Origin: an uncultured Eggerthellaceae bacterium
Lineage (GTDB): Bacteria; Actinomycetota; Coriobacteriia; Coriobacteriales; Eggerthellaceae
Assembly: GCA_947626665.1 (NCBI GenBank)
Contig: CANQTB010000001.1
Span: forward strand, 1-37,059
Length of the DNA stretch: 37,059 nt
Direction: 5' to 3'
The notes under the pieces are model-generated. The model was not told the origin of the DNA. It saw only the letters and a list, made by a program, of their open reading frames with translations, and ran no database searches. Both the position numbers and the translations under genes were made by a program. Shown here one piece after another: positions 4,908 to 36,074 of the stretch. Every line of letters starts with the position of its first letter. Position 1 is the first letter of the stretch.

Positions 4908-5065
4908 CGTCGAATCTCCTCCCATGGAAACACTTCAACCAACGTTAGGCATTTTAGGGAGCAAGATTGCTGATGACAACGATACTTTGTCTGTGTCGCT
5001 GTTCCACATTCTTCCTGTTCAACAAGGTGTTAAATTACTTAATTAACTATTATTGTTAAAGACGC

Positions 5066-5968
5066 TTAAGTATTTTTGCTATATGTTTTCAAGTTGTAGT
5101 ACATACGAGAATGCCAAGCTTTGAGAATCAACACGCTTTCGTCGGAGCTCGGAACGTGAGTTGGCACGGTAATTTCGTCTAGCTTCGGTATTACGTCATT
5201 TACAATAGCTCGTCCTTTTTTCGTAATACCGATGATGAGAGACCGCGCATCAAAAGGATTTTTCACTTCCTCTATAAGAGATAAATTCACAAGATGCTTT
5301 TTACATGCCGAAATTTGACTTCGAGGCGTAAGTAAGTGCTCTGAAAGATCTTGTGCTCTCATCGTCGTAACATCCGCCAATGAATGTAAAATGCGAAATT
5401 CGTTCAGGTTTAATTTGCAACTATCATGAATGCATTGTCGCCACTTTTCGACAATTGCACGAGCAAAGACGATGAACTCTACGCTGTATCCAGCTGATAG
5501 TTCGTTGTGTATACAAAAGTCGACCTCAAAGCCTCGAAGAATGTCAAGGTTTGTATGAATTCCTGTTTGTAAGTAAGTGTAATATTCAGAATCGGGAAGC
5601 GTTTTTTGAATTACGTTCTTTAATAAGCAGAACGCCTCATTGCAATCTTTTGCAAGGGAGTCCCCTTGTTTGCTTAAGCTTATAGAGGCAAGTCTTTTAT
5701 CCCTTTCGTTATTCTTGATCTTTATAAACTCCCTTTCTTCTAACGACGGAGTTAGTTGCCATATACTGCTAATCTTCATTATGAGAAAGTCCGCTAATTG
5801 CCGAAACGACAGTGCAGAATCTGATTGGTAGAGTGTCAACAAGATTTCGGCGTCAGTGAGTGTTATTCCGAGGTCTTTTCTGTATTTTTGAGAAAACAGT
5901 TTAATAATCTCGAGGTAGATTGTGGAAAGTTGAGAAGAAAACCCTATTTGTTCGCTTCCACTACTCAT
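5066..5968 (-). CDS. transcriptional regulator with two MarR-like winged-helix domains in one chain
   Basis: 300 aa. First wHTH around LTDAEILLTLYQSDSALSFRQLADFL...RDKRLASISLSKQG. Second around LNEFRILHSLADVTTMRAQDLSEHL...DARSLIIGITKKGRAIV. Confidence 0.65.
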   Translation of the reverse strand: MSSGSEQIGFSSQLSTIYLEIIKLFSQKYRKDLGITLTDAEILLTLYQSDSALSFRQLADFLIMKISSIWQLTPSLEEREFIKIKNNERDKRLASISLSKQGDSLAKDCNEAFCLLKNVIQKTLPDSEYYTYLQTGIHTNLDILRGFEVDFCIHNELSAGYSVEFIVFARAIVEKWRQCIHDSCKLNLNEFRILHSLADVTTMRAQDLSEHLLTPRSQISACKKHLVNLSLIEEVKNPFDARSLIIGITKKGRAIVNDVIPKLDEITVPTHVPSSDESVLILKAWHSRMYYNLKTYSKNT

Positions 5969-5986
5969 CAGAAGCCTCTCTTGGTT

Positions 5987-6004
5987 TTTTAGCTTGAGCT
6001 AAAA
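5987..6004. promoter_or_regulatory. 18-bp palindrome TTTTAGCT-TG-AGCTAAAA, 19 bp upstream of the tandem-MarR start
   Basis: Read directly. MarR-family proteins typically bind palindromes in their own promoter regions. Confidence 0.3.
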
Positions 6005-8669: not shown

Positions 8670-10961
8670 ATGACTGACTTGCCGACATTGAAAGTCAAGT
8701 CAAATATCACCATCGACACGAAGCAAAGCTCGGGAAGGCTTTCCCGCTGGGTCGCTGTTGGACTGATCGTCTTCCTTGTGCTCTATTTCGTTATCACAAT
8801 GAATAACATCAGAACGATCGACGAGCGCATCACCGCGATCAAAGACGGCCCCTACCCCGTTTCCGTTGCTGCCGGCCACGTGGAAACCATTCTTACGCAA
8901 ATTCGCACCCTCGCCTATCGACCCACCCTCACCGATCCGGATAGGGTCATTAAAAGCGTCGAATATTCCTACGAGACCAACAACGCAGATTTGGAAGCTC
9001 AGCTCACTCTCATCAAGGAACAAGACGACCAAAACTACGACCTCGCACAAGGTCTTTTTGACGATTTCTCCGTCCTCATTAACGCCGAGAACGCTTTCAT
9101 CGACTACTGCTCATCTCCTTCCGTAACTCCCGAAGAGGTCGAAGCATACGTCAACGACAACCTCTTCCCCGTTATCGATCGCATGCTCGAGAACGACCTT
9201 GCCCTCCTCGCATCAACAACAAACTTCATCGACGAGAGCTACGACGTTATTTCGGGCGTTCTGCTCACGACGACAATCGCCTCGATAATCCTCATACTTG
9301 GCGTAGCAGCCTCCCTTGCCATTTACCTGACGCTTATCTACCGCAAGAATCAGCGCGAACGACAGCTGCGCGAGAACTTGGAAAGCGCCCTCGAGATCGC
9401 CCAGAACGCCAACGCTGCCAAATCGACGTTCCTCTCGAACATGTCGCACGACATCCGCACCCCGATGAACGCCATCATCGGCCTCACCACCATCGCAGAC
9501 ACCCACATCAACGATACCATTCGCGTAAAAGAATGCCTCACGCGTATTTCCACCTCGTCAAAACACCTTCTCGGGCTTATCAACGACATCCTCGACATGG
9601 GCAAAATCGAAAGTGGCAAGCTGACGCTCAATGAGGAGCAGTTCTCGTTCCCCGAACTTATTTCCGGCTTCATCACGATCATCCAACCCCAAGTGCGCGC
9701 GAAGCACTTGAAATTCGACGCCTCGCTTCCCAACGTGAAGAACGAAATGCTCATCGGCGATTCCATGCGTCTTAACCAGATGATGCTCAACCTCATGGGC
9801 AACGCCATCAAATACACGCCTGAAGGCAAGGCCGTGAGCATTTTCATCGAAGAAGAGCCCTGCGAACGTGCCGGGTATCACAACTATCGCTTCGTCTTCA
9901 AGGACGAAGGCATCGGCATCTCCCCCGAATTCCTCAAGGTCATCTTCGACCCCTTCGAGCGCGAGAACAACGAGACAACGCGCTTTACCGAGGGCACGGG
10001 CTTAGGTCTTCCGATCACGAAGAGCATCGTCGAACTCATGGGTGGCACCATTAACATCGAGAGCACGCCGCATGTCGGCTCCACCTTCACCGTCGTCATT
10101 CCCTTGAAAGACGGCATCGATCCGGAAGAGGGCGACGATATGGCCGCACTCTATGGGCTGCACATGCTTATTGTCGACGATGATGAGCTTGTGCGTGAGA
10201 GCACTCATGAAACCTTGAGCGAGCTGGGGATTCGCAACGAGACCTCGCCCTCGGGCCATCACGCGGTGGAGATGGTTCAGGCTGCCCATGCCGACAATGA
10301 CGACTATCATGCCGTTCTTCTTGATCGTTTTATGCCTGGCATGGATGGTCTCGATACCGCACGAAAGATTCGCGAGATAATCGGAGACACAACGCCGATC
10401 ATTCTCGTGACGGCATACGATTACAACGAGATTCAGTCAGAAGCCATCGAAGCCGGTATTACGGCGTTTATTTCCAAGCCGCTCTTCAAATCCCGTATTT
10501 ACCACGTTCTGAAGCTGCAATGCATCGATGGCGGCGTTGAAACCTTCCAAGTTGTCGAGAGCGCCAAAGATGCGCAGTTGCAGGGGCGCGTTCTTCTCGC
10601 TGAAGACAATGAGCTCAACAGTGAGATTGCCTCTGAACTCATCACTCAACTCGGACCTGAGGTGGAAGTTGCAACAAACGGCCTTGAGGCGGTTGAAATG
10701 GTTGATTCAGCTGATGAAAACTACTATCAGTTGATCTTCATGGATTGGCAAATGCCGCAAATGGACGGCATCGAGGCAACGAAGACGATCATCGATCATG
10801 CACGACGCACGGGGCGCAACCATCCGCCGATCGTCGCGATGACGGCGAATGCCTTCAATGAGCATCGCGATATGGCGCTGGAGGTTGGCATGGATGGCTT
10901 TATGGCAAAGCCGATCGATGTGAAAGAACTCGAGAAGATTCTTCGAAAATACCTTGGATAG
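8670..10961 (+). CDS. hybrid sensor histidine kinase with two C-terminal receiver domains
   Basis: Two TM segments flank an extracytoplasmic region of about 170 aa. H-box SHDIRTPMNAIIG, N-box LMGNAIKYT, G1 DEGIGI, G2 GTGLGLPI. REC1 is LIVDDD...LLDRFMPGMDG. REC2 is LLAEDN...IFMDWQMPQMDG...AKP. Confidence 0.9.
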   Translation: MTDLPTLKVKSNITIDTKQSSGRLSRWVAVGLIVFLVLYFVITMNNIRTIDERITAIKDGPYPVSVAAGHVETILTQIRTLAYRPTLTDPDRVIKSVEYSYETNNADLEAQLTLIKEQDDQNYDLAQGLFDDFSVLINAENAFIDYCSSPSVTPEEVEAYVNDNLFPVIDRMLENDLALLASTTNFIDESYDVISGVLLTTTIASIILILGVAASLAIYLTLIYRKNQRERQLRENLESALEIAQNANAAKSTFLSNMSHDIRTPMNAIIGLTTIADTHINDTIRVKECLTRISTSSKHLLGLINDILDMGKIESGKLTLNEEQFSFPELISGFITIIQPQVRAKHLKFDASLPNVKNEMLIGDSMRLNQMMLNLMGNAIKYTPEGKAVSIFIEEEPCERAGYHNYRFVFKDEGIGISPEFLKVIFDPFERENNETTRFTEGTGLGLPITKSIVELMGGTINIESTPHVGSTFTVVIPLKDGIDPEEGDDMAALYGLHMLIVDDDELVRESTHETLSELGIRNETSPSGHHAVEMVQAAHADNDDYHAVLLDRFMPGMDGLDTARKIREIIGDTTPIILVTAYDYNEIQSEAIEAGITAFISKPLFKSRIYHVLKLQCIDGGVETFQVVESAKDAQLQGRVLLAEDNELNSEIASELITQLGPEVEVATNGLEAVEMVDSADENYYQLIFMDWQMPQMDGIEATKTIIDHARRTGRNHPPIVAMTANAFNEHRDMALEVGMDGFMAKPIDVKELEKILRKYLG

Positions 10962-26790: not shown

Positions 26791-27030
26791 TTACGGTAAG
26801 GGGTCATAGCCGTAAGTTCCGCCAGGTCGGCAGCGTAATATACGCTTCGCAGTCAAAACAAATCCTTTTAAAAAGCCATAACGTTGAAATGCCTGCAAGC
26901 CATATTCCGAACAAGTGGGAATATGGCGACAACACGAAGGAAATAACGGAGAAATAGCCGCGCGGTAAAACATTATGAGCATCACGGCTACCTTGACCGG
27001 TATTTTCTTTATGATGCCTAAGAATTTCAT
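26791..27030 (-). CDS. yidD: membrane protein insertion efficiency factor YidD
   Basis: YRAAISPLFPSCCRHIPTCSEYG motif. The ATG at 27030 overlaps the rnpA stop (ATGA). The longer track ORF running to 27066 is unlikely. Confidence 0.85.
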   Translation of the reverse strand: MKFLGIIKKIPVKVAVMLIMFYRAAISPLFPSCCRHIPTCSEYGLQAFQRYGFLKGFVLTAKRILRCRPGGTYGYDPLP

Positions 27031-27353
27031 CGCACTAAAGGCTCTTTCTTTCGTAGCTGTTCGCATGATTTAAGAACTTTACTATAATTCGCATCTTTCA
27101 GGGCCGACTTTGCAAGAAATATCACGTCGTAATCCTGCCAAGGGCCTCCAAGATCACGACAAAGGGAGCGTAATCGACGTTTCAGCCGGTTTCTTACAAC
27201 GGCGCCTCCAAGCTTTTTCCCCGCAATAAAAGCAACACGACCAGATTGGCCGTGTTCTACAATAAAGGTAACATAAGCAGTCTTGACGTATCTTCCCTCA
27301 TGAAATATGCGGGATATTTCGTCTTTCGATCGAATCGTTTCAATCTTAGACAC
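27027..27353 (-). CDS. rnpA: ribonuclease P protein component
   Basis: Basic RnpA-like sequence ([21 protein letters not shown]). The proposed GTG start at 27353 overlaps the rpmH stop. The track ORF extends to 27446, but that stretch overlaps rpmH. Confidence 0.8.
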
Positions 27354-27480
27354 AGAGACGCTTACGTCCCTTCGCGCGGCGACGTGCAATAACATGCCTT
27401 CCCGCCTTCGTTGACATACGAGCGCGGAAGCCATGGCATTTAGCACGTTTTCGTGTGTTCGGTTGGTACGTGCGTTTCAT
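27346..27480 (-). CDS. rpmH: 50S ribosomal protein L34 (44 aa, absent from the ORF track)
   Basis: Hand translation: [44 protein letters not shown]. Confidence 0.9.
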
Positions 27481-27516
27481 ATCATTTCCCTTTCATGACA
27501 AAAGCGTAACTGCAAA

Positions 27517-27545
27517 AGCATACTAAGCACTTTACTTCAAGTCAA
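27517..27545 (-). promoter_or_regulatory. candidate sigma-70-type promoter for rpmH
   Basis: The minus strand reads TTGACT-N17-TATGCT, ending about 36 nt upstream of the rpmH ATG. Confidence 0.45.
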
Positions 27546-27950
27546 TGAAAAAATTCATCAGCGTTGAGGGATTATACCTACGATCTTAGGGGAGCAGAAT
27601 AGCCTTTCAGGGCAGAGATCCGATACCTTTCCGTTAGCCAAAGCAGATTATTTATGAATGCTTTTCCTTACAACTGCTCTTTTTATTAAAGAGAGGTTGT
27701 TTATGGTAATAAGGGCGGTGGATATGTTGAAAACTATCGTTTGTGCTGATAAACGAAAAAAAGATATTCGCATTGAAAAGTGAAAACACCAGAGATTTTT
27801 CCATGGAGAAAAATGACTTCCTTATCTTTCCCAAGATTTATGCATTTCATCCGCTTGTTATGCCAAGACAATCAACAACCGTGCCCCAAGATTTCCCGCA
27901 CAATATCATCGGGGAATCGATCGCAGATGATATTAGTGATCGATGGACGC

Positions 27951-29576
27951 TTACAGCTCGCGAATGATATGCTTCAGCGTTTCAACCTCTTCTTGGATGC
28001 CTCGGTCTTCGCGAATAAGTTTTTCCATTACATCAACCGAGTGCATTGCCGTCGAATGATCGCGATTGAAGCGCTTGGCGATGGTGTTGAAAGGAAGATC
28101 AGTCATCTGGCGACAAAGATAAATTGCGATCTGGCGCGGTTGCACTATTTCCTTTGCACGTGAAGGGCCTATGAGGTCTTTATGGGAGATCTTGAAGAAT
28201 GATTCAACTTCCTTCTGTATATCCTCAACAGTAAGGGTATGGGAAAGCGCGGGGGTGAAAAAGCTTTCGAGCACCATCCTCACATCCTCAACGCCAGGGT
28301 TTGGCTGATGGAAAAATTCCATATGATAGATAACTTTTGTAATGGCACCCTTCAGTTCTCGAATATTCGAACCCGAGTTTTCTGCGATATAAAGTTGGAC
28401 AGATTCGGGTATTTGAAGATTGGGCTTATCATCATTGATGCGATATTGGTTGATGAAGCTTTTGATGATGCCAAGCTTTGTTTCAACCGACGGGGGTTGA
28501 ATGTCCACGATTCCGCCTTGCGAAAAGCGTGATTGATATCGTTCATCGATGTCGATGTTCTTTGGAGCGCGGTCGGCTGAAAGCACCACTTGTTTTCCCC
28601 AACCAATAAGTTTATTGAAAACCTCGAACACGATTTCCAGTGTCTGGCGTTTTCCTTGAAGTGACTGAATATCGTCTATAAGGAGAATGTCCGCCTGTTG
28701 GTAACGTGTTTTGAAGTTCTTGAAGGATGATTTCTCTTTGTCGTGAGCGATAGATGCTTCGGTAAAATCATTGAGTAGATCGGCTGAGTCTACATAGACC
28801 GTTGTCATGAGAGGCGAGGTCTCATCAATATAGTTTTGTATTGCCCTGAGCAAATGCGTTTTCCCGAGGCCGCTCTTTCCATAGATGAAAAGGGGATTCA
28901 AGGCGGTACGACCAGGATTTTCCGCCACATCGACAGCCATTGAATAAGCCATGCGATTGGAATCGCCGATGACGAAGTTTTCAAACGTCAGCTGAGCTGT
29001 TGGATTGATAGTGCCGCCAAACATCGTATTTTTCTGCATTGACTCTTTGAAATGCTGATCTATTGGTGTGTTCTTACGTTCAGAGAGCACTTTTGGATCA
29101 TCATCTTGCAGCGGATTGCCTCTTTGCAGCTGGCTAAGAGATCCATCATTGTTTGACGCCGAGTTGGCCGAGGGGATCGGCTTTTCCTGAACCTTGTTAC
29201 CAGAGGATGGAAAAGCATTCTGCTGGGCCGCTGATTTTTCAGGTGAGTTTGTCGTAGTGTTTTGAGAAACAGGAGCTGACATTGTTGGATCAACTTCAAT
29301 GAGAACCGTGAAATCTACCTGATAAAGCTCCTTGAGGGCATTCTTAATGAGTGAAAGATAATGGCGTTCGATCCACTGCTTCATAAAATCATTTTCCGCA
29401 GTGAGCATGAGAAACCCCTCGCTCATCGCCTGAGGACGAAGACGAGAGAAGAACGCGATGATCTGACTTGCGTCAACTTCCTCACGTGATGTAATGGAGC
29501 TGCAAACACGTGACCATTCTTCATTGAGGTTTTGAAAATCAACCATAGTTCTACTCACTTTATAATCTGAAAGCAT
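27951..29576 (-). CDS. dnaA: chromosomal replication initiator DnaA
   Basis: Walker A GKSGLGKTHLL, LLIDDIQ, and DnaA signature region FNRDHSTAMHSV. Long Ser/Asn/Gln-rich domain II. An alternative ATG lies at 29546. Confidence 0.95.
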   Translation of the reverse strand: MLSDYKVSRTMVDFQNLNEEWSRVCSSITSREEVDASQIIAFFSRLRPQAMSEGFLMLTAENDFMKQWIERHYLSLIKNALKELYQVDFTVLIEVDPTMSAPVSQNTTTNSPEKSAAQQNAFPSSGNKVQEKPIPSANSASNNDGSLSQLQRGNPLQDDDPKVLSERKNTPIDQHFKESMQKNTMFGGTINPTAQLTFENFVIGDSNRMAYSMAVDVAENPGRTALNPLFIYGKSGLGKTHLLRAIQNYIDETSPLMTTVYVDSADLLNDFTEASIAHDKEKSSFKNFKTRYQQADILLIDDIQSLQGKRQTLEIVFEVFNKLIGWGKQVVLSADRAPKNIDIDERYQSRFSQGGIVDIQPPSVETKLGIIKSFINQYRINDDKPNLQIPESVQLYIAENSGSNIRELKGAITKVIYHMEFFHQPNPGVEDVRMVLESFFTPALSHTLTVEDIQKEVESFFKISHKDLIGPSRAKEIVQPRQIAIYLCRQMTDLPFNTIAKRFNRDHSTAMHSVDVMEKLIREDRGIQEEVETLKHIIREL

Positions 29577-29671
29577 TGAATGCTTTTTCTCACTGTTTTG
29601 CGAAACAGATTATACGAGAGAAGACTTTTTGGTGGCGGAATTGAAAGAAATACTCAGGAAAGTTTATTTGG

Positions 29672-30478
29672 TCACTCAAGAAAACTTTTTGCAACCGCTT
29701 TTCCCTCATCAGTAAGTGCACGTTTTTTCCCGACACGTTTTACCAGCCCTGCTTCCTCAAGCTTCGAAAGCGTTTGATGAGTGCTGGAAAGAGCCACTTT
29801 GGTGAGATTCGAAAGATCTGTTACTCCAAGCTGGCCCTCCTGATAGAGGAGGGGAAGAAATTGTTTTGCATGAGCAGAAAGAAATGGTGTTGATGCATAA
29901 ACGGCATTTGAGGGATGTTTCGGTGAAGATTCTCTTTCCATTTCCGGAAGAGGGGAGGGTATCTGGTCGTGAAAGGGAGTGAGGCTGATGGTGACGACAG
30001 AGCCCGTGTTGAGATTATCTTCAAGGGTGATCATCCCATTTGAATAATCCATGTATTCCTTTACATAGGGAAGGCCGGAGCCAACACCGCGGATATAGCG
30101 TTTCATAGGTTCGGTTGCTGAGGTGAAACCCGGGCGCTGAGCGTTATCTTTGTCTTCGATGCCCGGCCCCTGATCGGCAAAACGGATAGTGTTTCCCTCT
30201 CCGATGATGGAAACAACAATTTCCTGGAATCTTGCATGGATGAAATTTTCAGCCACCTCGCGAATAACGGTGTAGGGGATTTTTCCGCCTTGCAGACGGG
30301 CGTTCTCATAAACGGATGTCGAGAGCTTTTCGATAAATTCCACCGTATGGGCAGGAGGTATTTCGATTACACGTGGCACTGAGCGAAGGTCGTCATATAC
30401 CGCAATACGAGCAGTTTGCGAGACGAAATCGAACGAGGAATCACGTGATTCTTCTTGGTTTATTATCGTTTTTTCCAC
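29672..30478 (-). CDS. GHKL (Bergerat-fold) ATPase-like domain fused to a C-terminal winged helix; function unknown
   Basis: 268 aa. GTG start with AGGAGG 7 nt upstream. N-box-like EVAENFIHA, G1-like ADQGPGI, G2-like GVGSGLPYV. C-terminal GVTDLSNLTKVALSSTHQTLSKLEEAGLVKRVGKKRALT is MarR/ArsR-like. No DHp/His-box is visible. Confidence 0.75.
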   Translation of the reverse strand: MEKTIINQEESRDSSFDFVSQTARIAVYDDLRSVPRVIEIPPAHTVEFIEKLSTSVYENARLQGGKIPYTVIREVAENFIHARFQEIVVSIIGEGNTIRFADQGPGIEDKDNAQRPGFTSATEPMKRYIRGVGSGLPYVKEYMDYSNGMITLEDNLNTGSVVTISLTPFHDQIPSPLPEMERESSPKHPSNAVYASTPFLSAHAKQFLPLLYQEGQLGVTDLSNLTKVALSSTHQTLSKLEEAGLVKRVGKKRALTDEGKAVAKSFLE

Positions 30479-31165
30479 GTGATTCCTCCTTTCCTCCTCT
30501 AACGTAGTGAAGCCTCATGCCACTGTCTTCAGCTTTTCCTCATAACGAGTCGTTCGCGATACATGGTTTTCAATATTGTCTCACTGTACAACTTTCTTTA
30601 GCTTTCAAAGTTATCAACATTTTATTCATAAAAAGTGGAGAAAGTTGAATTAAAACGAAAAAGTCCTTTCGTCGAGAAAATGCTTTGGTGAAAAACTTTC
30701 AAATTTTTTCTTGACTTTTCAATCATCTTCGGTTTCGCCTGATCGTCGCACGGAGTTAAAAGGAATAGCACGAATGCTGCCTGGAAAGAAAGCAGAATTG
30801 CAAAAAACAAGGTATTGCAATTTCGTAAAATTAGGTTTTCCCAGTTCAATAACGAAATATTGAAAAATGTGTTTTTCTGGGATTATTACTGTTTTCACAA
30901 GCAACCAGCACTAATTTTGAAACACACCGTGGTTTCCCCTTATTTATCCACGTCTAATTCTGTGTAAATGAAAAGTTATCCACTTTATCCACAATTTCAG
31001 ATGGGAGTTTTAAACTTCTTTCATCTTCAAGAGAAAGTTGAAAGCGAAAATTTTCATAAATTATGAATATTCGTCATATTTTCAGCTTTCACTTTTTTCA
31101 GCTTTCACTCAGGATAACCCCTTTAACGGGATACAATAGCAAAAACAAAGAGAAAGGTCGTTCCC
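30479..31165. other. oriC: probable oriC (687-bp AT-rich non-coding region at the strand switch)
   Basis: It contains the consensus DnaA boxes. Every gene from 22196 to 30478 is on the minus strand and every gene from 31166 onward is on the plus strand. An AT-rich stretch at 31045-31080 is a candidate unwinding element. Confidence 0.7.
30944..30993 (+). promoter_or_regulatory. cluster of three same-orientation DnaA boxes
   Basis: TTATCCACG at 30944-30952, TTATCCACT at 30976-30984, and TTATCCACA at 30985-30993 (the last two abut). A one-mismatch box, TTATCAACA, lies at 30611-30619. Confidence 0.8.
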
Positions 31166-32269
31166 GTGAAAATAAGCATCAATAAATCCGAACTTCTCAA
31201 TGCCCTTTCAATCGTTTCAAAAGGCGTCTCGGCGCGTTCAACGCTTCCGGTGCTTTCGGGAATACTTCTCGATGCATCGGGGGACGGCATTACCATGCAG
31301 TCATCCGATTTGGAACTATCGGTGAAATATCGTGTAGCGGCATTGGTAGAAGAGGAAGGCAGAGCGGTTTTGCCGGGTAAATACTTCCTCGATATCGTGA
31401 AGAACCTTCCCGACGCAGCGGTAGCGATCGATACGAATATTGAAAGCGCCCATATCATTGGAGGGGGTGCCTCCTTTTCCATCAAAATACTCAATGCGGA
31501 AGATTTCCCTGCGTTTCCCGTTGTAGAGCCTGATCAAGTAGTTGAGCTTCCCTATGAGGAATTTTGCAAGATGGTAAAGCGCGTGGTGAAGGTGGTTTCG
31601 CGTGATGAAACGCGAGCGATTCTCACGGGCGTGCTGATTTCTGTCAATGGTGGAAAAGTTCGCATGGTCGCCACCGATTCATATCGCCTTGCCCTTACTG
31701 AATCTGAACTTCCCGAGGCGAACGTCGATGCATTTCAGGCTGTCATTGCGGGGAGTTTCTTAAGCGAGCTTACGACGCTGCCAAAAGGTGCTTCGGTTTT
31801 AACGCTTGGCGTTGCGGAAAACCAAATCATCGTGACTTGCGGCGATACCGTCATGATCAACCGGAGAATAGAAGGGAACTTCCCCAATTACCAGCAGCTT
31901 CTCCCAGAAAGTTCGTCTATGAGGGCAACAGCCGATCTTGAGGAGCTAAAAGCCAGCATCAGGCGTTCTTCATTGTTGGGCACGTCTGCAACGCCGGTGA
32001 AGCTCGATTTCAATGTAGATAGCCAAACGTTGCTCATCACGTCGAATGTGTTGGATGTGGGGCATACCGAGGAAACGCTTTCGTGTGAGATCACGGGAGA
32101 GGACGAGGTTGTCGCCTTTAATTCTTCCTATGTGCTCGATGGGCTTGCGGCGATCAATACGGAGAAGGTTCATATCGAGCTGATCTCCTCATTAAAGCCG
32201 GGAATTTTCCGTGCTGATGCGCCAGAGAATTATCTGTATCTGGTCATGCCGGTGCATATTTCCTCATAA
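31166..32269 (+). CDS. dnaN: DNA polymerase III beta sliding clamp
   Basis: GTG start. N-terminus MKISINKSELLNALSIVSKGVSARSTLPVLSGILL. About 367 aa with a three-domain layout. Conserved position. Confidence 0.95.
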   Translation: MKISINKSELLNALSIVSKGVSARSTLPVLSGILLDASGDGITMQSSDLELSVKYRVAALVEEEGRAVLPGKYFLDIVKNLPDAAVAIDTNIESAHIIGGGASFSIKILNAEDFPAFPVVEPDQVVELPYEEFCKMVKRVVKVVSRDETRAILTGVLISVNGGKVRMVATDSYRLALTESELPEANVDAFQAVIAGSFLSELTTLPKGASVLTLGVAENQIIVTCGDTVMINRRIEGNFPNYQQLLPESSSMRATADLEELKASIRRSSLLGTSATPVKLDFNVDSQTLLITSNVLDVGHTEETLSCEITGEDEVVAFNSSYVLDGLAAINTEKVHIELISSLKPGIFRADAPENYLYLVMPVHISS

Positions 32270-32274
32270 AGGAC

Positions 32275-33381
32275 ATGTCTCTTCACATCACTCATATAGA
32301 GCTGACGGAATTCCGCAGCTGGCATCGTTTGCGGCTCGATGTCGAGAATCCCCTTGTCATTTTGGTGGGGGAGAATGCGACGGGGAAAACCAACACGATC
32401 GAGGCGGTGGAGCTTCTTACCGCGCTCACGTCGTTTCGGCATGCGACCACCGAACAGCTCGTTTCTCATGGGGAGGAATCTGCCCATCTTGCGATCGATG
32501 TTAAAGAGGGCACGCGAGAGCTTCAAATAGAACTTCATCTCGCGGACAATCGTCGTCGCTATATGCTTAATGGCAAAGCGAAACGCCCAAAGGATCTAAA
32601 AGGGCTTGTACCTGCCGTCTGCTTCACTCCGGATGATCTCATGGTGGTAAAAGGCGCGAATGCGCAAAGGCGGCATCTGATCGATGCGCTCGGGTCCCAG
32701 CTTTCAGCCCATTATCATCAAGTTCTCATGGATTATGAAAAGGTCATTCATCATAAGAATCGCTTACTGAAGGATGAGGCGCCTGACGATTACCTTGAGG
32801 CGGTAAACGAACTTGTGATCACCTGTGGTGCCCAGCTTGGGTTTTTTCGCGCGAATCTCATTGAAAGGCTTTCGCCCTACGTTAAAAGCCATTATGCCGA
32901 AATATCATCCGATCGCGAAGTGCTCGATCTTGCTTACGAGCCTTCTTGGGGAAATGCTCAGATGACCCGTGATGAAGCACGTGATTCGCTAGCTGAGGCG
33001 CTTGCCGATTATGCTGAAAGGGAGCGCGCGGCACACAAATCGCTCGTTGGGCCCCATGCTGATCACATCACGTTTCTTCTTGCTGGAAAGGATGCATCTC
33101 TTTTCGCCTCCCAAGGTCAGCAGCGCTCCATCGTGCTTGCAGAGAAGCTTGCCGAAGCGACGCTTGTCGAGATTATCCTCGAGAAGAAGCCGATCCTGCT
33201 TCTTGATGATGTGATGAGCGAGCTTGATCATAGAAGGCGCGATGCCCTTATGAGTTTTCTTGAAGATGGTGCCCAAGCATTCATCACAACGGTGAACCTT
33301 GATTATTTCACTCCTGAGATTTTAGCGGCATCCCAGATCGTTGAGCTTTCGAGAATTCAGAATGGATGTATGCAAGCTTGA
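32275..33381 (+). CDS. recF: DNA replication and repair protein RecF
   Basis: Walker A GENATGKTN, SQGQQRS signature, LLLDDVMSELD Walker B. Confidence 0.93.
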   Translation: MSLHITHIELTEFRSWHRLRLDVENPLVILVGENATGKTNTIEAVELLTALTSFRHATTEQLVSHGEESAHLAIDVKEGTRELQIELHLADNRRRYMLNGKAKRPKDLKGLVPAVCFTPDDLMVVKGANAQRRHLIDALGSQLSAHYHQVLMDYEKVIHHKNRLLKDEAPDDYLEAVNELVITCGAQLGFFRANLIERLSPYVKSHYAEISSDREVLDLAYEPSWGNAQMTRDEARDSLAEALADYAERERAAHKSLVGPHADHITFLLAGKDASLFASQGQQRSIVLAEKLAEATLVEIILEKKPILLLDDVMSELDHRRRDALMSFLEDGAQAFITTVNLDYFTPEILAASQIVELSRIQNGCMQA

Positions 33382-33905
33382 TAAGGCTCGGAGATGAAAT
33401 ACGATCGCAGGCAAATCAGCTGGCGCGGGGAAACGACGCCTCACGTTTGGCAAGGCGTATTGCGGAAGTGCACGCAATGTTTGCTGATGCGGCGCAAGCG
33501 CTCTACCATGAAAACGCACCCGAAGTGCTTTCCCATGTGAACGCTGTCTATATTAAAAATGAAAGCGGGCAGAAAACCCTATCGCTTTACATCGATGACG
33601 GGAGTTTTCGTTGGGATTTATACAACCAACAACATTTTCTCATGCTTTGGCTCAAAGAACGCCATGGAGAGCAGATCGATGTGGTGAAAACCTATCCCTC
33701 GCGTCTCGGCATGAGGGACCGCCATCCTTTTAAAACGGCAAACTCCCTCGATGACCAGCGAAAAGTCGCAAAAAAGACGATCACGCAAGGAGAACGGGAA
33801 CACATTGAGAAAACGGCGCAGAGCATTGCCGATCCTTGGTTGAAAAGGCGATTCATCGAAGCGATGACAGCATCGCTTGAGCGTGGGATAAAGGCCGAGA
33901 AATAA
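33366..33905 (+). CDS. DUF721/DciA-like protein
   Basis: 179 aa. Overlaps the recF 3' end by 16 nt. Its position between recF and gyrB is typical of the actinobacterial DUF721 gene. The core pattern HVNAVYIKNESGQKTLSLYIDDGSFRWDL fits from memory only. Confidence 0.55.
   Translation: MYASLIRLGDEIRSQANQLARGNDASRLARRIAEVHAMFADAAQALYHENAPEVLSHVNAVYIKNESGQKTLSLYIDDGSFRWDLYNQQHFLMLWLKERHGEQIDVVKTYPSRLGMRDRHPFKTANSLDDQRKVAKKTITQGEREHIEKTAQSIADPWLKRRFIEAMTASLERGIKAEK

Positions 33906-34109: not shown

Positions 34110-36074
<1,965 letters not shown>

Follow-up and report, generated by a model that had tools for sequence, protein, structure and literature searches.

In actinobacteria, a continuous origin between dnaA and dnaN is the textbook case. 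The basal unwinding system (BUS), a combination of DnaA boxes and DnaA-trios, was reportedly described by Richardson in 2016 and 2019. In a BUS, at least three DnaA-trios (3'-NAN-5') lie no more than 16 bp from a DnaA box; the boxes stand in tandem with the upstream one nearer the consensus, about 10-13 bp lead to the trios, and the trios read 3'-(G/A)AT-5' (PMC8287927). Bipartite origins are arranged as incA/B - dnaA - incC in Bacillus subtilis and as oriC1 - dnaA - oriC2 in Clostridioides difficile (PMC4285127, PMC7561715), and the case of Helicobacter pylori makes clear that a unit of dnaA and origin is able to function in new surroundings (PMC4285127). Symmetric inversions around the replication origin are known (PMC5850607). 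An inversion that takes in the origin keeps genes co-oriented with replication and is hence tolerated. Here we describe the dnaA region of an uncultured Eggerthellaceae bacterium, a gut actinobacterium, on a stretch of 37,059 nucleotides (contig CANQTB010000001.1, positions 1 to 37,059) that is called the window throughout. In this region dnaA and its upstream neighbour, a gene for a GHKL and winged helix-turn-helix (wHTH) protein that we call ghkl, stand between two spacers with DnaA boxes. A literature search found no publication on Eggerthellaceae or Coriobacteriia origins or on this dnaA-linked ghkl gene.

Results

Organization of the dnaA region

The comparative data indicate that the region probably holds a bipartite origin with ghkl and dnaA as its spacer, and that the cassette, ~3.3 kb long (~27.69-30.99 kb), was inverted as a whole in the window lineage. 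DnaA boxes at 30611-30993 and at 27717-27733 flank the two genes, and the pattern is kept in both orientations of the cassette. Window proteins were assigned with Pfam and NCBIfam profiles, and DnaA boxes were searched as TTATCCACA with at most one mismatch across the 37-kb window, with shuffled sequences as the control. The cassette and its immediate flanks contain the following features, in which E1, E2 and E3 are short conserved elements.

27346-27480, minus strand: rpmH (ribosomal protein L34, 44 aa), from the translated open reading frame (ORF); positional orthologue of the PF00468 genes in three distant loci (L087-L089); left flank, outside the flipped cassette
27648-27688, no strand: 41-bp stretch that adjoins the trios on their far side and in which the duplex of the rpmH-dnaA spacer is least stable; candidate for the AT-rich region of unwinding (free energy -45.7 kcal/mol versus a window mean of -56.9 +/- 4.3)
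27692-27738, minus strand: E3, BUS-like putative unwinding module (32.8 bits with a position weight matrix, PWM)
27733-27725, minus strand: DnaA box TTTTCAACA of E3, read from the sequence
27725-27717, minus strand: DnaA box ATATCCACC of E3, read from the sequence
27716-27713, minus strand: GC spacer GCCC of E3, read from the sequence
27712-27707, minus strand: trios TTA TTA of E3, followed by degenerate CCA TAA ACA, read from the sequence
27951-29576, minus strand: dnaA, ORF of 541 aa (TIGR00362, 399 bits; Bac_DnaA, Bac_DnaA_C and DnaA_N)
29577-29671, minus strand: ghkl-dnaA gap, 95 bp by the ORF start, with TATAAT at 29614-29609
29672-30478, minus strand: ghkl, 268 aa, GHKL domain and C-terminal wHTH (Pfam HATPase_c and HTH_IclR/MarR)
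30479-31165, no strand: ghkl-dnaN spacer, 687 bp, rich in DnaA boxes and ending in the dnaN leader; the oriC of an earlier, preliminary description of the window
30611-30642, minus strand: E2, face-to-face DnaA boxes TTCTCCACT (30642-30634) and TTATCAACA (30611-30619, plus strand) around TGAATAAAAT (30628-30619), found by comparison
30944-30993, plus strand: E1, upstream DnaA-box cluster of TTATCCACG (30944) and the tandem TTATCCACT TTATCCACA (30976-30993), with boxes facing away from ghkl
31166-32269, plus strand: dnaN, profile match; right flank, outside the flipped cassette

The preliminary description had described dnaA as a minus-strand gene that runs the same way as rpmH and diverges from dnaN, had put the 268-aa GHKL/wHTH gene between dnaA and the main DnaA-box cluster, and had seen a strand switch at 30479-31165. 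The profiles agree with these gene identities and strands, the Pfam and box scans with the position of ghkl, and the gene map with divergent transcription.

Two layouts and recurrent inversion

A scan at one genome per species yielded 238 genomes with a relative of ghkl, and the best 80 of these 238 were inspected. The set of loci amounted to 89, namely L001-L086 and the distant L087-L089 from uncultured Coriobacteriia/Actinomycetota. Among the 84 classifiable Eggerthellaceae loci, 62 showed the order rpmH<- / ->ghkl->dnaA / ->dnaN->recF->gyrB (type A), including isolates of Gordonibacter, Adlercreutzia and Slackia. The remaining 22 showed the order of the window, dnaN<- / ->ghkl->dnaA / ->rpmH->rnpA->yidC (type B). 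The dnaN and rpmH flanks were concordant in every classified locus. Type B includes the cultured Raoultibacter timonensis, represented by two independent assemblies of which one is a complete chromosome, and the nearest relative of the window (L004, 77-85% protein identity) has the window layout on three independent contigs.

Type B is made up of two multi-species clades and two single species, with about 20 species in coherent clades. The window was placed in a nine-species type-B clade of deep internal divergence (DnaA ~60% identical). A neighbour-joining tree was built from concatenated GHKL, DnaA and DnaN (80 taxa, 1098 columns, 100 bootstraps) and rooted on L087-L089. Parsimony on this tree gave 4 orientation changes, and the bootstrap trees gave 4 (69 trees), 5 (30) or 6 (1), that is at least 4 in 100/100. 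The root was type A in 97/100 bootstraps, while the two large type-B clades were not sister groups in any of the 100. The flipped order arose at least four times.

Meanwhile, ghkl was directly upstream of dnaA and co-oriented with it in 89/89 loci. Because the distant loci L087-L089 share this order in the type-A layout (ghkl-dnaA gaps of 11-22 bp), the extra gene is an ancient, class-deep trait and type A is the ancestral order. In L088, the one distant locus compared, identity is 47% for the GHKL protein and 36% for DnaA. The inversion and the extra gene reported in the preliminary description are real, but the arrangement is not a strain-level oddity. The inversion is normal in the type-B clades, Raoultibacter timonensis included, and the layout is lineage-typical rather than aberrant because close relatives routinely show the same order.

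The downstream half: a BUS-like element

Across the family, E3 consists of tandem DnaA boxes of which the upstream one is nearer the consensus, 12 nt to the first trio, five to seven trios (complement 3'-AAT/GAT-5') and AT-rich DNA beyond. Its consensus is GTTTTCCACAATTCCACCGTCCTTATTATTACTATTATTAAAA, also given as GTTTTCCACAATTCCACCGTCC TTA TTA TTA CTA TTA TTA AAA. In the window, TTTTCAACA is followed by 12 nt (TATCCACCGCCC) and then by TTA, which is the tandem-box order and spacing of a BUS.

The E3 PWM was trained on 34 type-A loci only, and type-B loci were kept out of the training. Its single best match lay in the dnaA/dnaN spacer in type A and in the dnaA/rpmH spacer in type B. E3 ran in the direction of dnaA in 55/60 type-A and 15/18 type-B loci (70/78 in total), at a median distance from the dnaA stop of 155 bp and 165 bp, respectively. 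In untrained loci the median scores were 34.5 (A) and 36.0 (B), and all second-best matches were at or below 11.7. The window copy, with its 32.8 bits, compares with -6.6 for the next best match in the 37 kb and with a maximum of 7.7 among 2000 shuffles of the rpmH-dnaA spacer. A strict trio detector (at least 3 consecutive N-T-[A/T] triplets, 2-7 nt past the box) gave a positive result in 31/60 type-A and 6/18 type-B loci. The CCA that follows the two canonical trios of the window also occurs as the third trio in L011, L013 and L015, whose arrays are otherwise intact. We infer that unwinding would start at this BUS, at ~27.7 kb.

The upstream half: E1, E2 and the ghkl-dnaN spacer

Half of the eight DnaA-box matches of the window are located in the 687-bp ghkl-dnaN spacer, at 30611, 30944, 30976 and 30985 (the last one perfect), where ~0.1 would be expected from shuffles (mean 5.7 per window). 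E1 appears in the family as DnaA boxes, often a tandem pair, directed outward from ghkl. In type A, 46/62 loci have a box of this orientation at a distance of 420-620 bp from the ghkl start on its upstream side, and in type B 17/20 do; E1 lies at about -550 in either type. Loci of both orientations, 41 in all, share E2, which stands ~125-200 bp before ghkl, has the consensus gTTTTCCACttTTTnTGAATAAAATGTTGAaAACTttGAAAA and is likely to be a DnaA-controlled promoter of ghkl. Outside the three short elements, the spacer sequences have diverged beyond detection across the family.

No convincing DnaA-trio array was present beside E1 towards dnaN in any frame of the window, and no BUS-like element was found beside E1 or dnaN in any type-B locus. 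Trios next to E1 were therefore rejected: on the outward side of E1 the detector found none in type B and 7/62 in type A. Rfam returned no structured RNA at E<=1 in 27300-31300. Neither spacer contained conserved small ORFs, as the nearest relative alone gave translated matches, and these were spread over several frames.

Hence the preliminary assignment of oriC to 30479-31165 holds for the box cluster, but the BUS-like module and the skew minimum of the window (27.2-28.0 kb, not 30.5-31.2 kb) place the probable opening elsewhere. Judged by its elements, this spacer is likely to be the box-rich upstream half, similar to incAB or oriC1, and not the probable unwinding site. The claim that the extra gene separates dnaA from oriC would fall away too, since the extra gene does not lie between dnaA and the probable unwinding site at 27692-27738.

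A 22-nt direct repeat (82% identical, 30521-30542 and 31090-31111) was also observed 45-75 bp upstream of ghkl and dnaN, and its dnaN-side copy belongs to the tandem TCAGCTTTCAC (31082-31108). One possible role of this repeat is that of an operator, bound for instance by the wHTH protein.

Transcription of dnaA

The start of dnaA is probably the ATG at 29546 (Met11 of the ORF), judging from the nearest relative, in which DnaA begins at the position of the window Met11 and the first 10 ORF codons (29546-29576) are unmatched. With this start, the ghkl-dnaA gap would be ~125 bp instead of 95 bp.

The preliminary description had dismissed the TATAAT in this gap as lacking a -35 element and had concluded that, with no promoter, ghkl and dnaA are probably co-transcribed. 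The hexamer is indeed present on the minus strand, and a simple scan of that strand of the 95-bp gap found no sigma-70-like two-hexamer promoter and no terminator. However, its conservation and enrichment speak against the dismissal. Between the window and the nearest relative, conservation of the gap is strong and extends to CTCTCGTATAATCTGT and TATAAT. On the sense strand of the gap, 28/78 loci have TAYAAT; the antisense strand has it in 4, and shuffles give 6.9 +/- 2.4. Its median position is 68 nt before the conserved DnaA N-terminus, and the window copy stands at exactly 68 nt. Because of this conservation and family-wide enrichment, dnaA probably has a promoter of its own in the gap, which argues against co-transcription as the sole arrangement. 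Read-through from ghkl is nevertheless likely because the gap shows no terminator and distant relatives have ghkl-dnaA gaps of only 5-29 bp.

Several lineages carry DnaA boxes in this gap. Two boxes were seen in the short gap of L019, L022, L027, L041, L044 and L045, which form one type-B clade, and they suggest a DnaA-autoregulated internal dnaA promoter there.

Alternative explanations

The alternative that survives best is a single continuous oriC in the ghkl-dnaN spacer, in which ghkl and dnaA would form one operon co-directional with the leftward fork and the BUS-like element at 27.7 kb would be a decaying relic. We consider it unlikely, yet several observations speak for it and in part also weigh against a bipartite origin opened at E3. 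The strongest DnaA boxes of the window, three of them near-perfect within 50 bp, lie in the ghkl-dnaN spacer, which is richer in high-quality boxes than the rpmH-dnaA spacer. It also has the lowest GC content (0.33-0.39) and is slightly less stable, with the lowest duplex stability (nearest-neighbour free energy -44.0 at 31045), and a local GC-skew dip is present at 30.4-31.2 kb. The BUS has only two canonical trios (TTA TTA) in the window and the nearest relative, the published minimum of three consecutive trios is not reached in the window clade, and the nearest relative scores only 9.5 on the E3 PWM. The third-position AT skew (AT3) of ghkl and dnaA differs between the types (0.06 vs -0.03, uncorrected p=0.008), being nearer to leading-strand values in type B as a group, which hints at an altered replication direction through ghkl and dnaA in some lineages. 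The gap without a terminator would suit an operon. As to recurrence, the tree is neighbour-joining only and was made from the genes of the locus itself, so it is not a species tree.

Other observations speak against the single oriC. Neither the window nor any other type-B locus has a trio array or a BUS-like match beside E1, whereas in type-A relatives the homologous box cluster lies between rpmH and ghkl and the BUS lies at dnaA-dnaN. Type-B BUS scores equal those of type A although the remaining spacer has fully decayed. The overall minimum of cumulative GC skew, computed within the window, is on the rpmH side of dnaA, and the conserved TATAAT of the gap favours a separate dnaA promoter. The dnaA-ghkl segment itself has a positive plus-strand skew though both genes are on the minus strand.

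Two measures do not decide the matter. Duplex stability does not separate the two spacers. Third-position GC and AT skews do not reveal the replication strand of ghkl and dnaA, as dnaN and gyrB also have negative third-position GC skew and the clade contrasts are inconsistent.

A programmed invertible element, in which recombination between the outward DnaA-box pairs of E1 and the BUS, perhaps in a DnaA-bridged loop, would flip the origin reversibly in populations, is very improbable. The cassette ends are DnaA boxes in inverted orientation, the only inverted sequences there, at least four independent flips have taken place, and one sub-clade has the BUS alone reversed, all of which would fit such an element. 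By contrast, local alignment of the two spacers in 72 loci revealed no inverted repeat longer than a DnaA box. Only box-sized inverted matches recur, and inverted scores were no better than direct ones (mean 11.4 vs 10.8), so that long inverted repeats were rejected as the cause of flipping. Moreover, profile scans found no recombinase gene in the locus, and orientation is stable within clades across deep divergence (DnaA ~55-63% identical).

The sub-clade in question comprises L019, L022 and L027, within type B, in which the BUS-like element of the dnaA/rpmH spacer is reversed and its trios face dnaA (scores 27-39). The reversal points to a second flip of smaller size or to another history of breakpoints. 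A 29-nt repeat of the window (76%, 27647-27675 and 31036-31064) is not conserved.

Finally, a strain-specific rearrangement or assembly artefact, which no observation favours, is hardly credible even though many relatives are metagenome-assembled genomes, given the three contigs of the nearest relative, the agreement of both Raoultibacter timonensis assemblies, and the coherent clades of about 20 species with concordant flanks.

The GHKL-wHTH protein

The protein encoded by ghkl has thousands of relatives, of which the named ones are from Eggerthellaceae (Raoultibacter, Gordonibacter, Arabiibacter), and its family comprises 347 representatives at E<1e-30. Pfam assigned HATPase_c to residues 69-166 (33.8 bits, cutoff 26.4) and an IclR/MarR-type wHTH to residues 209-250. 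In the family alignment, a variable linker joins the GHKL domain to a conserved wHTH. The N-box (E74..N78), G1 box (D102-Q-G-P-G-I) and G2 box (G131-V-G-S-G) are invariant, with E74, N78, D102, G104, G106, G131, G133 and G135 as the invariant residues. The AlphaFold (AF2) model showed a Bergerat fold and a wHTH at a predicted local distance difference test (pLDDT) value of 72, with a poorly modelled ATP-lid region (pLDDT <50, residues 105-135). With an N-box Asn, DxGxG, GxxGxG and this fold, the product belongs to the GHKL (Bergerat-fold) superfamily.

The N-box of the window reads E-V-A-E-N-F-I-H-A and resembles the E-x-x-x-N-A-x-x-H motif of SpoIIAB/RsbW kinases, and the JGI label of some family members is 'anti-sigma regulatory factor (Ser/Thr protein kinase)'. 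An anti-sigma kinase of the SpoIIAB/RsbW type was nevertheless rejected, as TIGR01925 (spIIAB) reached 20.3 bits against a cutoff of 135; the conserved ghkl neighbourhood of the loci examined contained no sigma or STAS gene. A two-component sensor histidine kinase was rejected because no HisKA match was found in Pfam or NCBIfam; the stretch before the GHKL core is only ~65 residues long and, in the model, consists of two beta-strands and one helix. A MutL/GyrB-type GHL ATPase was rejected as well, with TIGR00585 reaching 18 bits (cutoff 180) and a linker and wHTH where the transducer domain would be; weak N-box similarity to MutL exists (PDB 5x9y, E 0.003). PADLOC gave wHTH-level matches only, and membership in a defence system was rejected.

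The sequence search of solved structures returned only generic wHTH and histidine-kinase or MutL fragments. The best Foldseek match of the AF2 model was the uncharacterised DIP2311 of Corynebacterium diphtheriae (PDB 3LMM, E 1e-5), followed by the ATP-binding domains of histidine kinases, CheA and PDK. The match to DIP2311 spans both the GHKL-like domain and the wHTH, but the TM-score is only 0.41, the identity 15%, and 3LMM is twice as long. Neither SpoIIAB/RsbW nor DIP2311 is known as linked to dnaA, in contrast to the window protein. From this strict linkage, and from it only, we infer an ATP-dependent DNA-binding regulator that would act with DnaA or oriC. It is a tentative and rather doubtful further step to see in it an unrecognised Coriobacteriia initiation factor that would have been passed on together with dnaA and the two origin halves, the whole being an autonomous 'origin cassette' independent of orientation. 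If this step is right, function and not chance neighbourhood would explain why the gene has stayed strictly linked to dnaA through class-level divergence and at least four inversions. The gene is thus a concrete, testable candidate for an initiation regulator in a group that includes the drug-metabolising gut genera Eggerthella and Gordonibacter.

Other features of the window

The remaining features near the cassette are listed below.

27517-27545, minus strand: promoter-like TTGACT-17-TATGCT upstream of rpmH, from a consensus scan only
32275-33381, plus strand: recF, profile match
33366-33905, plus strand: gene of 179 aa between recF and gyrB, ORF
34128-36074, plus strand: gyrB, profile match

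Beyond rpmH, profile matches identified rnpA, yidD, yidC, khpB and rsmG, all on the minus strand. The rnpA ORF, if taken from its first GTG, covers all of rpmH (window 27027-27480), and its real start is probably further downstream, as in relatives. The 179-aa gene has no Pfam match and occupies the position of a PF05258 DciA gene in L088 and L089 (similarity 23%, E 0.006), so its product is probably a very divergent form of the helicase loader DciA. A hybrid histidine kinase gene (HisKA, HATPase_c and two receiver domains) at 8670-10961 lies on the plus strand; as this part of the window presumably belongs to the left replichore, the gene would be head-on to replication. Nowhere in the window is the GC skew more negative than in this stretch (-0.17 to -0.24). 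A GC dip to 0.39 at 5001-6000 coincides with the gene for a 300-aa protein of two MarR-type winged helices (5066-5968, minus strand). In L087 (11425-12789) gyrB is seemingly split into a 246-aa HATPase_c-only gene and a gene with the remaining GyrB domains, probably through a frameshift or an assembly error.

Discussion

Starting from what was observed, namely the gene order with its conservation and recurrence and the DNA elements with their positions, the cassette may be read along ghkl and dnaA as follows. The outward boxes of E1 would come first, followed by ~350 bp of unconserved DNA, E2, ghkl, dnaA, ~160 bp, the BUS and AT-rich DNA, with E2 and the gap TATAAT as putative promoters. In the ancestral type A, this cassette would sit between rpmH and dnaN with the BUS beside dnaN. 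In type B it would have been inverted whole, between the outer edges of E1 and E3, so that the BUS faces rpmH and the box cluster faces dnaN. Because both origin halves and both genes would move together, the internal geometry would be unchanged by the flip, with dnaA read towards the unwinding site and head-on to the fork, and the flanking genes would remain co-directional with replication. It is plausible that the flip is tolerated and recurs for this reason, and the flip itself may be selectively neutral.

It should be further pointed out that origin finders weighing DnaA-box density and dnaA adjacency would pick the box-rich spacer, while the comparative data point across dnaA. The same 3.3-kb cassette, flipped at least four times in one family, is a natural experiment. 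It suggests that a bipartite origin is a self-contained unit whose orientation is unconstrained relative to rpmH, dnaN and the replichores. The cassette also defines the content of a minimal oriC fragment for replicating vectors in Eggerthellaceae.

As in Bacillus subtilis and other Firmicutes, two box regions are parted by dnaA, and the upstream one overlaps an autoregulated promoter (PMC4285127, PMC7561715), a role which E2 would take here. The downstream half is likewise made up of tandem boxes and a GC cluster together with DnaA-trios and AT-rich DNA. The reading direction of dnaA is again towards the putative unwinding site, and the ancestral Eggerthellaceae context is also rpmH ... dnaN-recF-gyrB. 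The differences are that the Eggerthellaceae spacer consists of two genes, ghkl and dnaA, that the window unit is inverted, and that the system is known here from its sequence. The E3 consensus shares box order, spacing, trios and AT-rich flank with the BUS of Pelliciari 2021 (PMC8287927), whereas the window copy, likewise known as sequence only, retains the boxes, the spacer and just two canonical trios. The oriC1 - dnaA - oriC2 origin of Helicobacter pylori is also bipartite with dnaA as the spacer and lies outside the canonical rpmH/dnaN context (PMC4285127), but it belongs to another phylum with other DnaA-box rules, has no ghkl partner and shows no evidence of recurrent flipping. Compared with the known symmetric origin inversions, the Eggerthellaceae segment is only ~3.3 kb long, ends in the two bounding spacers and was flipped at least four times in one family. 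Thus bipartite origins, BUS modules and origin-centred inversions are already known (PMC4285127, PMC8287927, PMC5850607), while the two-gene spacer with a conserved GHKL-wHTH partner, the presence in a class of actinobacteria and the repeated inversion of the whole cassette are new.

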